Shown one piece after another: positions 775 to 60,418 of a DNA stretch of 64,000 bases (positions are counted from its first letter, which is position 1; every line of letters begins with the position of its first letter). The notes beneath the pieces are model-generated. The model ran no database searches. It worked only from the letters and a program-made list of their open reading frames with translations, and had not been told where the DNA came from. The position numbers and the translations under genes were made by a program. The stretch lies in contig CAVTNR010000008.1 of assembly GCA_963736115.1 (NCBI GenBank), forward strand, positions 96,001-160,000, given 5' to 3'. Source of the DNA: an uncultured bacterium. GTDB taxonomy: Bacteria > Zhuqueibacterota > QNDG01 > DTFT01.

Positions 775-1062
775 TCGGGCGGCCAGAAGCCCAAGCTTCC
801 GGGTGGTGTTATTTAGAATGATCGGAGTGCGGGCTTCTGGCCGCTCCGACGAGTCAAATTCGCCGTCGCTTCCCTTCAATAATTCAATAGGGATATTGAT
901 TGGTCCCGTGAAGCCTTCAATAAAATTAATCCGTTGATTGGTCCCGCAACGCGGGACGGGGCGGCGGCGATAATCCAAATTTCTTGTGAACCCCCACCGT
1001 CCGGCAAAGCCGGACCAAGCAGCCAGATGCGATTGTATTGAAGGCTTGCGGTGGGGTCACCT
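774..1062 (+). mobile_element. Palindromic MITE-like repeat family B, divergent copy, carrying 3 micro-element insertions
   Basis: ATCGGGCGGCCAGAAGCC...GGGCTTCTGGCCGCTCCGA hairpin plus ATCCAA.TTTCTTGTGA, shared with 4247-4542 and 30272-30521. Confidence 0.75.
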
Positions 1063-4246: not shown

Positions 4247-4542
4247 ATCGGGCGGCCAGAAGCCTGTTCATTCTGGTTCCAATTTTACTGGATGATCGGA
4301 GATTGGGCTTCTGGCCGCTCCGACGGGTCTGATTCTCCGGCCCCGCGATGCGGGATCAAGCTACAGATGCCGGCTATTGAAGACTTCGCCGGACCAAGCA
4401 ATGAGATTGATTCATTAATGAAGGCCCGCCGCTTGCCTTCAATATGATAAAAAATTATAATAGCTTGGTCCCGCGCAACGGGACGGCGTCCATCATCCAA
4501 GTTTCTTGTGATACCCCGCTGCTTGCGGCGGGGTCTTTCATT
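4247..4542 (+). mobile_element. Palindromic MITE-like repeat family B with 3 micro-element insertions
   Basis: Near-identical backbone to 30272-30521. Ends in a GC hairpin plus TTCAT, like IS200/IS605 right ends. Confidence 0.8.
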
Positions 4543-30271: not shown

Positions 30272-30521
30272 ATCGGGCGGCCAGAAGCCTGGTCATTCTG
30301 GTTCCAGTTTTTCTGTATGATCGGAGATTGGGCTTCTGGCCGCTCCGACGGGTCTGATTCCCCGGCTTCGCCGGACCAAGCAATGAGATTTGCTCATTAT
30401 TGAAGGCCCGCCGCTTGCGGCGTCCATCATCCAAGTTTCTTGCGATACCCCGCTGCTTGTCTTCAATAATTCGTAAATAGAATAGCTTGATCCCGCGAAG
30501 CGGGCGGCGGAGTCCTTCATT
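30272..30521 (+). mobile_element. Palindromic MITE-like repeat family B with 2 micro-element insertions
   Basis: Aligns with 4247-4542. Confidence 0.8.
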
Positions 30522-53260: not shown

Positions 53261-53878
53261 ATGAGTGAAGCCATCAATGAAAAACGGACGGTCACCCGCC
53301 GCGATTTTCTCAAGATATCAGGCGTCATTTCCGCGCTGATCGTGACGGGCATCAAGTCCGCCGCGCACGCGGCGCAGAAGGCGGTTGAAAACTTTCTGGC
53401 GCGGATAGAGGCCGCGTACGCGCAGGATGCCGCAATGCCCCTCCGCAAGTCGCAGGACAATCCGCAGCTGCAGAGCCTGTACGCGGACTTCCTCGGCCGG
53501 CCGCTCGGCGGGATGTCCGAAAGCCTTCTGCATACCAGCTACACGGACCGTTCCTCGGCCGTCTCCGTGGCACGGCCGGGGGCCGTCCGTTCCCTGCCCG
53601 AGTCTCCGGTGATCGAGTCGGTCTATCCGAATCCGTTCAACGCATCGGCTGAAATCGAATTCCGCATATCCGCGCCGGGAATGGTATGGCTCGCGGTTTT
53701 CAACGCCGCGGGACAGCGGGTGCGCTCGCTCGCGGAAGAGCGCATGCCGGCGGGAGACCACCGGATCCGGTGGGACGGAAAGGACTCCTACGGCAGGAGC
53801 GCCCCGTCCGGGATATACATCGCCCGGCTTGTATCGGGATCGCGGACGGCCGCGATCCGCATGACGCTGATGAAATGA
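53261..53878 (+). CDS. hydB: [FeFe]-hydrogenase small subunit with Tat signal, fused to a FlgD-Ig/T9SS-type C-terminal domain
   Basis: TRRDFLK; RIEAAYAQD...RKSQDNP...LY..FLGRPLG...LLHTSY; then YPNPFNAS...VFNAAGQRVRSL...WDGKD...SGIY..RL...MTLMK. Confidence 0.9.
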   Translation: MSEAINEKRTVTRRDFLKISGVISALIVTGIKSAAHAAQKAVENFLARIEAAYAQDAAMPLRKSQDNPQLQSLYADFLGRPLGGMSESLLHTSYTDRSSAVSVARPGAVRSLPESPVIESVYPNPFNASAEIEFRISAPGMVWLAVFNAAGQRVRSLAEERMPAGDHRIRWDGKDSYGRSAPSGIYIARLVSGSRTAAIRMTLMK

Positions 53879-53889
53879 TGCCGAATGAT

Positions 53890-54137
53890 GAATCTGACAG
53901 CGAGCGCATTTCCCGGCTTCGCCGGACCAAGCAACCGGATTCTTTCTCATTGAAGGCCCGCGGCTTGTCTTCAACAAGCAGGCATATAATAGCTTGATCC
54001 CGCGCAGCGGGCCGCGGGGTAAGCGAGCGAATATCAGATGTCTCTTCTCTACAGATAGAAGATTCCCCGCCGCTTGCCTTCAAACAGAAGGCATATAATA
54101 GCTTGGTCCCGCGAAGCGGGCGGCGGGGAGCTTCAAT
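53890..54137 (+). mobile_element. Repeat family A with 3 micro-element insertions
   Basis: Matches 34660-34777 once 53912-53956, 53968-54011 and 54077-54120 are removed. Confidence 0.82.
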
Positions 54138-54222
54138 GGCGGAAGGCGGAAGAAAGCCGGATGATCCTCGCCCGTATGCTTTGAACCTTGAACTTTGAAC
54201 TATTACTGGAGGGAGGGCTTCC

Positions 54223-60261: not shown

Positions 60262-60418
60262 GAATCTGTCAGCGAGCGTATACCCCGGAGCTTGCCTTAG
60301 CAGGCATCTGTAGATTGGTCCCGCGCAGCGGGACGGGCTCCGGGGTATGCGAGCGAATATAAATTGTCTTTTCTCTACAGATAGAAGATTCCCCGCCGCT
60401 TGCGGCGGGGAGCTTCAA

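Follow-up and report, generated by a model that had tools for sequence, protein, structure and literature searches.

Results

The repeat cluster and the other copies in the window

The window analysed here is a stretch of 64,000 nt from the genome of an uncultured bacterium (hereafter G000; 3.34 Mb, 31 contigs, 60% G+C, 87% complete). At 53.9-54.14 kb, between conserved genes, it contains a cluster of short repeats made up of two host hairpin repeats, denoted P2 and P1, each interrupted by a copy of a small element that we call M, and of a further, inverted copy of M. The P2 host hairpin (53957-54019, plus strand), recognized from the sequence, the DNA fold and the existence of empty P2 hairpins with the same flanks, has the arm CCCGCGG at 53957-53963 and the loop CTTG at 53964-53967, after which come M (53968-54011, plus strand) and the arm CCGCGGGG at 54012-54019. 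This copy of M reads TCTTCAA-CAAGCAGGCATATAATAGC-TTGAT-CCCGC GCA GCGGG, with T1 at 53968, CTTCAA at 53969-53974, TTGAT at 53994-53998 (A30 at 53997) and the hairpin CCCGC-GCA-GCGGG at 53999-54011. The P1 host hairpin (54065-54136, plus strand) consists of the arm CCCCGCCG (54065-54072), the loop CTTG (54073-54076), M (54077-54120, plus strand), the arm CGGCGGGG (54121-54128) and the tail AGCTTCAA (54129-54136). Its copy of M reads CCTTCAA-ACAGAAGGCATATAATAGC-TTGGT-CCCGC GAA GCGGG, with C1 at 54077, TTGGT at 54103-54107 (G30 at 54106) and CCCGC-GAA-GCGGG at 54108-54120. The third copy (53913-53956, minus strand; context B) abuts the P2 hairpin in inverted orientation, has the hairpin CCGGC-GAA-GCCGG and shows its head as TTGAAGG on the plus strand at 53950-53956. 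In the sister species G003, the orthologous spacer (L142, contig C22) lacks the entire cluster of ~245 nt (53890-54136 in the window), indicating that clusters are gained or lost as blocks.

According to the bases at positions 1 and 30 of the consensus described below, the copy at 53968 is of the T..A type, and those at 54077 and 53913 are of the C..G type. Two more T..A copies are present in the window, at 30460-30504 (plus strand, in the loop of a P-type hairpin) and at 4341-4383 (minus strand), so that all three TCTTCAA/TTGAT copies on which the original prediction was built are found where it had placed them. The copy at 4341-4383 is short (43 nt) and nested in the hairpin of an outer C..G copy, which begins near 4423; it is inserted after GGCGAAG and is followed by the outer 3' arm, CCGG. 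The remaining copies are of the C..G type: 30362-30406 (minus strand, context B), 1001-1044 (minus strand), 4436-4482 (plus strand, in a P-type hairpin loop), a nested pair at 873-961 (plus strand, inner copy 914-956, outer head at 873), and a copy at 60295-60333 (plus strand, in a P2-type hairpin) that is damaged, its head reading CCTT followed by a 4-base deletion. The pattern CTTCAA-N10-40-TTGRTCC matches the window 12 times against 0.15 expected, a number reached in none of 100 shuffles, and the matches divide into three T..TTGAT and nine C..TTGGT. With two further C..G copies that have damaged heads (CTTCAT beside 4384 on the minus strand, and the copy at 60295), the ratio of 3 to 11 that had been noticed originally is recovered as 3 against 9 plus 2 (Fisher p = 0.0027). 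The stretches reported to be shared across the two types, GGCATATAATAGCTTG between the copies at 53968 and 54077 and GGCATCTGTAG between those at 4341 and 60295, are likewise correct.

Definition and copy number of M

M is 43-47 bases long and is habitually inserted into the loops of other DNA hairpins. It comprises a head, YCTTCAA; an A+T-rich core of 17-21 nt; a tag, TTGRT; a hairpin, CCCGC-NNN-GCGGG; and 0-1 extra base. The consensus spans 44 profile positions, in which Y1 is followed by CTTCAA at positions 2-7, each kept in 144-147 of 148 copies; the core, of 17, 19 or 20 nt in this profile, has conserved A17 T18 and A22 T23. The tag region reads G25 C26 T27 T28 G29 R30 T31, with T28 in 143, G29 in 146 and T31 in all of the 148 copies and R30 represented by G in 104 and A in 44, and the hairpin has a 5-bp stem, CCCGC or CCGGC, and a 3-nt loop. 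Positions 18-23 form a hexamer that resembles a -10 box (T18 in 133 of the 148 copies, A19 in 86, T20 in 85, A21 in 102, A22 in 126, T23 in 142); many copies contain an exact TATAAT, and window examples of the hexamer lie at 53985-53990 and 54094-54099. It may act as an outward promoter or simply provide DNA that melts easily.

A profile built from 117 strict copies and run with nhmmer across G000 (E <= 0.01) yields 175 matches, of which 111 are C..G, 54 T..A, five T..G and two C..A; in the remaining three, position 1 is extrapolated into a truncated or rearranged/misaligned head. A loose regular expression applied genome-wide gives 164 matches (98 C/G, 47 T/A, five C/A, three T/G and 11 others, which are mostly chance occurrences that lack a hairpin), and the tag with the hairpin, TTGRT plus CCSGC-NNN-GCSGG, occurs 115 times in G000. 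M shows no replication-strand bias (70:62, p 0.54). Rfam 15 has no match at the gathering score anywhere in the window, and at E up to 10 the region 53850-54200 returns three matches, all at chance level. With respect to the features of MITEs, the head YCTTCAA and the 3' end GCGGG of M are not inverted repeats of one another, and filled sites show no duplication.

Covariation of the first base with the tag

The covariation that the original prediction had proposed from the window extends to the whole genome. The bases at positions 1 and 30 are Watson-Crick partners in 165 of the 172 scorable copies of G000, so that mismatched copies, which on that proposal should not be frequent, number only seven; Fisher's test gives p = 3.6e-36 when the relatedness of the copies is ignored. 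We calculated APC-corrected mutual information on 148 copies and 56 columns (the element and six flanking bases on either side), and the pair (1,30) ranked first of 1540 column pairs, with an MIp of 0.585 compared with 0.386 for the best pair of the hairpin (34/42). The mismatches are not enriched in the wobble combination, with five T..G against two C..A copies. The rate of deviation at this pair is similar to that at the other conserved sites, 1-4 of 148 copies per site, which fits selection at the time of copying, or later decay, rather than upkeep of each copy.

The state of the pair is not set by the target because the loops of P hairpins hold 30 T/A, 31 C/G and three T/G copies. It is nevertheless partly tied to context: 35 of the 40 copies in context B are C/G, and the filled P2 loops are mostly T/A.

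Repeated switching between the two states

A maximum likelihood tree of 147 copies, built from the 42 columns other than the pair, requires 14 changes of Y, 17 of R and 19 of the joint state and thus implies ~12 joint changes, on a topology that is weakly supported. An independent-pairs test on this tree finds only three pairs on supported branches (p 0.25) and is underpowered. Given the weakness of the tree, we relied on shuffles within clusters and on contrasts between identical cores. When the copies are clustered on the same 42 columns at three thresholds, both states are present in five, four and four clusters, respectively. In 5000 trials in which R was shuffled within clusters, the observed number of matched copies, 141 of 147, was never attained (means 119, 112 and 100; maximum 131). 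Thus, as both the tree and the shuffles indicate, the T/A copies do not constitute a single clade.

Identical cores carry both states. Outside the pair, the T/A copy at C3:25260 matches two C/G copies in each of the 42 columns. The 17-nt core TAGCCGGCATCTGTTGC is accompanied by C/G in G000 and in the sister species G001, and by T/A in G001, G002 and G003; the core CAAGAAGGCATATAATGGC is found with T/A in G000 and with C/G in G001. These comparisons, together with the mixed clusters, show that the pair has undergone at least three separate double switches, in line with the original suggestion of more than one compensatory event, and that the covariation is not an artefact of two clades. Because many copies belong to composites that were duplicated as such (P2+M followed by P1+M), the copy numbers overstate the number of events, and single copies cannot be treated as independent events.

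Insertion sites and the boundary of M

The boundary of M can be read directly from empty and filled host repeats. For P1 (..AGAAGATT-CCCCGCSG-CTTG-CSGCGGGG-AGCTTCAA), with both flanks required, there are 17 empty copies and 10 copies with one M; for P2 (..GCGAGCGCATT-hairpin-TAAGCGAGCG), under the same requirement, 15 are empty and 10 are filled. In every filled P1 or P2 site, M follows the loop (..CTTG) and precedes the 3' arm, with no duplicated bases. M is therefore a true insertion without target duplication, and Y is exactly its first inserted base; it follows that the covarying base is the base 3' of the break. We rejected two other readings of the insertion. If Y were the last base of the target (cut at Y|C, guide TTGR), empty P loops should have a T in this position and T/A copies should end in T, neither of which is the case; if the 5' half of the hairpin were a target duplication, the two half-hairpins should be the same, but they are not alike, and the inner copy is followed by the stacked outer 3' arms.

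The base at position -1 is G in 133 of the 148 copies and A in six. The four bases that precede M vary (CTTG in 59 copies, CGGG in 44, and others) and mostly represent a few repeated hosts. At the other end, all 38 T/A copies scored have an R|C junction, which shows no covariation with R; the guide of a T/A copy therefore accounts for neither the 3' end of that copy nor the target. The guide of a C..G copy would specify a cut at G|C, and help in trans from C..G copies is conceivable.

Short copies of M occupy the hairpin of another M as well, where they follow the G of the loop and have the outer 3' arms stacked behind them; examples are the window copies at 4341-4383 and 873-961 and a three-deep case on contig 9. 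Head-to-tail copies are present as well. With regard to the hosts, P1 and P2 have a common hairpin, CCCCGCSG-CTTG-CSGCGGGG, and distinct flanks, with ~32 empty copies genome-wide; they usually lie side by side as a P2-P1 composite of ~110 nt, and the CTTCAA of the M head recurs in the P1 tail AGCTTCAA.

M in other genomes

All four genomes of the genus contain the M motif, with 130, 79, 73 and 64 strict matches. It was found in 13 of the 41 genomes searched, including, at low copy number, five genomes from other families of the order; a reversed-pattern control gave 0-1 matches per genome across the 41. The states were counted by hand from the rows shown, in searches that required a base other than C at position -1. 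Among 74 rows from G001, 51 are C/G, 22 T/A, one T/G and none C/A; the 71 rows from G002 comprise 23 C/G, 46 T/A, no T/G and two C/A; and the 63 rows from G003 comprise 39 C/G, 21 T/A, one T/G, one C/A and one other, an A..T row in GC-rich, coding-looking sequence that appears to be a chance match. The five genomes of other families contribute 40 rows, with two C/G, 35 T/A, no T/G, two C/A and one that is not an element. The three sister species obey the pairing rule, and so do genomes from other families within the order. In these other families, M resides in larger repeats with constant flanks, so that independent insertion is not established there.

These larger repeats were seen in another family of the order (L150-L154, L095, L126; G026, G028 and MAG records), where M is a module of composite repeats; in one such genome, it lies beside a long A+T palindrome (GTTCTTTTCTTC/GAAGAAAAGAAC), and in another, beside GCCATCCCGA..TCGGGATGGC. 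A motif scan of all species genomes returned at least 118 stretches, mostly chance matches; among the matches listed, six have the full M signature, all of them in MAGs of uncultured bacteria.

Candidate enzymes

G000 encodes three RAYTs that score above the NCBIfam cut-off, at C19:57.4-57.9 kb (L003), C2:71.4-71.9 kb (L002) and C17:75.0-75.7 kb (L001). Each is flanked by its own, different REP family and not by M; the three families are GTAG-GTCCGAAATGCCGAG.., GGTAG-CCGCAGC-CTTTAG-GCTGCG and GGGAGT-GCCGCGC-CCCA-GCGCGGC. Copies of M also occur in the loops of the first two of these families. No M was found beside a Y1/RAYT gene in G000 or in 20 Y1 loci of G001, G002, G003, G026 and G028; as G000 is 87% complete, a cognate gene may lie in its missing part. 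When compared with the fetched Y1 loci, only the RAYT on C19 has within-genus orthologues (70-76% identity), and the two RAYTs of G023, a genome that bears M, are only 22-31% identical to those of G000. Across the 41 genomes, the number of RAYTs (0 to 21 per genome) does not follow the number of M copies. A search for Y2/IS91-type transposases (PF04986) was equally blank in G000 and in the control genomes, so that its negative outcome carries no information.

RAYT-like genes are unusually abundant in the order, with a match in 39 of the 41 genomes and up to 21 in a single one; G001 has 11 RAYT-like genes, against three in G000. Two loci of the sister species, L004 and L006 (G001:C169 and G002:C212), carry Y1 transposase genes with high Pfam Y1_Tnp scores that are flanked by a GTAG-type repeat (GGGTAGCCCACGGC-TTCA-GCCGTGGGG) and by a second palindrome (GGAAACCGTT-GAA-ACGGTTTCC) and that have no counterpart in G000.

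Discussion

Relationship to known systems

We interpret M as a REP-like element that has one hairpin and a guide reprogrammed in nature. The TnpA-REP of Escherichia coli cuts single-stranded DNA at C|T (PMC3333891), and the rule derived from its structure is that, within the tag GTAG, G4 determines which base stands 5' of the break and A3 which base stands 3' of it (PMC3479197). The same source describes the enzyme as a monomer, from which the covalently held 5' end could pass to any free 3'-OH. In the Marinomonas system, a change of GTAG to GTGG moved cleavage to C|C (PMC8266576). M conforms to this register: TGRT abuts the foot of the hairpin, R is its third base, Y directly follows the break on the 3' side, and the combinations are A with T and G with C. 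The fourth position, T31, faces G, a wobble at best, so that M does not follow the position-4 rule by Watson-Crick pairing.

The likeness to the REP/TnpA-REP systems (the REPtron of E. coli, REPtron Mb of Marinomonas, Stenotrophomonas maltophilia) is extensive. Like M, REPs are GC hairpins repeated many times outside genes; an unpaired tetranucleotide lies at the 5' foot, and its third base is complementary to the base 3' of the break; cleavage is distant from the hairpin (as predicted for M), inverted, tandem and clustered arrangements occur, and RAYT genes are present in the genome. However, the REP tag is GTAG or CGTC, whereas that of M is TGRT, with the T of position 4 facing G. Unlike REPs, M carries upstream of the tag a core rich in A+T and a conserved head of 7 nt, no M-flanked RAYT was found, the guide is dimorphic within one genome, and single units are inserted at sites for which the matching empty sites exist. 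Accordingly, two features that define membership in a REPtron, the GTAG tag and the linked RAYT gene, are lacking in M. REPINs are likewise short, non-coding and hairpin-forming, and a RAYT is believed to mobilize them in trans (PMC3116915), as we predict for M, but a REPIN is an inverted REP doublet, itself the proposed mobile unit, whereas M is a single hairpin with a one-sided extension, and its insertion is documented for single units.

REPs have been reported within small palindromes, namely GTAG-23 of T. roseum in CCGSSCC-n3,4-GGSSCGG as well as examples from A. variabilis and H. neapolitanus (PMC3733652), and these resemble M in the P hairpins (CCCCGCSG-CTTG-CSGCGGGG) in that a repeat is lodged inside another short GC palindrome. 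They differ in bearing GTAG or CGTC tags, and, as far as the available text of PMC3733652 goes, neither covariation of an end with its guide nor nesting in the repeat's own hairpin is reported for them, and empty targets are not reported in two of the three cases.

The original prediction had named both IS608/ISDra2 and TnpA-REP as models. The second has proved to be the closer one; in IS608 and ISDra2, the guides recognize bases that lie 5' of the cut, which makes the analogy more distant. The IS200/IS605 elements and their non-autonomous derivatives share with M a hairpin with a guide 5' of its foot that selects the cut by base pairing (in M, by prediction), the absence of inverted terminal repeats and the lack of target duplication. 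The left cut of IS608 lies 19 nt 5' of the hairpin (PMC3201880), compared with ~30 nt in M. Furthermore, IS608 has two subterminal hairpins and two guides that read four bases 5' of the cut, whereas M has one hairpin at its 3' end and an unstructured 5' head; in M, the covarying base is 3' of the cut, and, unlike in IS200/IS605, no conserved target of 4-5 nt was found.

A guide-dependent model and its alternatives

The best explanation of these observations, to which we assign a probability of roughly 0.6, is that M is a non-autonomous single-stranded DNA element whose end is cut by a nuclease of the TnpA-REP/RAYT kind guided by TGRT. Under this model, a Y1 HUH nuclease of that kind would bind the M hairpin, at whose foot the tetranucleotide TGRT would serve it as DNA guide; R30, in the third position of this guide, would pair with Y1, the base 3' of the break, and C2:G29 and G(-1).T31 may add to the pairing. 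The strand would be cut at G|Y, ~29 nt upstream of the guide, which would define the 5' end of M, and the enzyme-linked 5' end would be joined to a free 3'-OH in exposed single-stranded GC hairpins, giving rise to loop insertions, nested copies and tandem copies. As a change of R would block cleavage until Y changes as well, only matched copies (T:A or C:G) would spread. The DNA guide for end cleavage, encoded by the element itself, that the original prediction envisaged is thus supported by the boundary, the register and the independence of the switches, with both enzyme and cleavage being putative; we infer the class of the enzyme, the chemistry of cleavage and the cutting of the 3' end and of the target. 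A bolder reading, which we consider possible but less likely than not, makes M a single-hairpin REP-type unit with boundaries readable from empty and filled sites, a 5' end set by its own DNA guide, several natural re-settings of that guide (A:T to G:C and back) through compensatory change, and an enzyme acting wholly in trans; an enzyme in trans would mean either a RAYT unlinked to its repeats or an enzyme that is not yet recognized.

Pairing need not imply a guide. Y1 and R30 could form a real pair in folded single-stranded DNA that closes the core loop where this loop, the host stem and the M hairpin meet in a three-way junction, with no HUH guide and with another recombinase, or replication and repair, as the agent. 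In DNA folds, the core does form a third arm beside the host stem and the M hairpin, the search for a cognate RAYT yielded none, and M is common to families whose RAYTs are not orthologous; however, a junction offers no reason why the paired base should lie exactly at the boundary or why the register should be that of TnpA-REP, and its helix would be only 2-3 pairs long and is not predicted by the energy model, so that we consider this explanation unlikely. A guide could also act in another register, that of IS608/ISDra2, with TTGR pairing with TCAA (positions 4-7), or with TTGAT as a target-like sequence, and with the mobile unit delimited in some other way. TTGAT is the target of ISDra2. Likewise, TCAA is the right-end site of IS608 (PMC3201880). 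In M, CTTCAA and TTG are nearly invariant, and TCAA and TTGA form a perfect 4-bp match in T/A copies, one that the DNA fold predicts for the copy at 30460. We nevertheless regard the IS608/ISDra2 register as very unlikely because it gives no reason for the covariation of Y1 with R30, because the comparison of empty and filled sites puts YCTTCAA inside the inserted DNA and the break 5' of Y, and because M has one hairpin instead of two subterminal ones. The pairing of TCAA (4-7) with TTGA (27-30), which is the one preferred in the fold of the 30460 copy, might explain the conservation of CTTCAA, although not the covariation of Y1.

The remaining alternatives dispense with pairing in DNA altogether. 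T..A and C..G copies could be two old lineages, the cores of which were mixed by recombination or gene conversion, and the duplication of composites as units, the partial association of state with context and the poor support of the tree are all compatible with this. Still, we give little credence to such a history: to exchange a core of 17-21 nt and yet keep both 1-base markers, one crossover has to fall within 7 bases and another within 5, and this on three or more occasions; shuffles within clusters fall short in 5000 of 5000 trials, and the pair is the top signal of mutual information; and, among the four possible transitions, only complementary states exist. It is also conceivable that M acts as a structured RNA, either a small self-cleaving ribozyme or a regulatory hairpin, with its 5' end set by an RNA helix. 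Some ribozymes cut at their own 5' end, which a precise end beside a paired base resembles, and the core of M is similar to a -10 box. The window, however, has no Rfam match at the gathering score, and its region 53850-54200 none beyond chance level at E up to 10; copies lie on both strands of the same spacer and are nested and inverted; exceptions of the U.G type are not favoured; and the empty and filled sites show insertion at the level of DNA, all of which makes an RNA element highly improbable. Among all these explanations, guided cleavage of single-stranded DNA by a TnpA-REP/RAYT-like nuclease is the one that we prefer.

Implications for the spread of REP-like elements

The spread of REPs is still described as poorly understood (PMC8266576). 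According to the same source, the guide role of the tag was shown only in vitro and only for one flexible system, and attempts to re-set the cleavage site failed for the systems of E. coli and S. maltophilia. To these observations, M adds evolutionary evidence from within a genome: complementarity is maintained between the third tag base and the base 3' of the cut, the pair has changed its state repeatedly, and the implied cut coincides with the mapped boundary of insertion. A TGRT-tagged, one-sided, single-hairpin unit is new, as are its insertion documented by empty and filled sites, its landing in hairpin loops, its own included, and a guide that exists naturally in two forms, between which it has changed several times. 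In the literature searched, as far as the accessible texts go and supplements aside, we found no report of natural covariation between a REP tag and its cleavage site, which does not prove that none exists.

M delimits a very small mobile unit whose preferred landing site is the loop side of GC hairpins, and its two natural guide states represent ready-made matched and mismatched substrates. Should the enzyme be found, the Y1:R30 pair would constitute a simple natural model for the re-targeting of HUH nucleases. If the bolder reading, with an enzyme wholly in trans, is correct, M would be a natural, minimal (43 nt) case of programmable cutting of single-stranded DNA and would offer a direct handle on the spread of REPs.

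The C..A copy G003:C82:10534 has the same unusual core variant (..AAATTTAATAAA) as the T..A copy G002:C161:5942; it may represent a step on the way from one matched state to the other, or it may simply have decayed.
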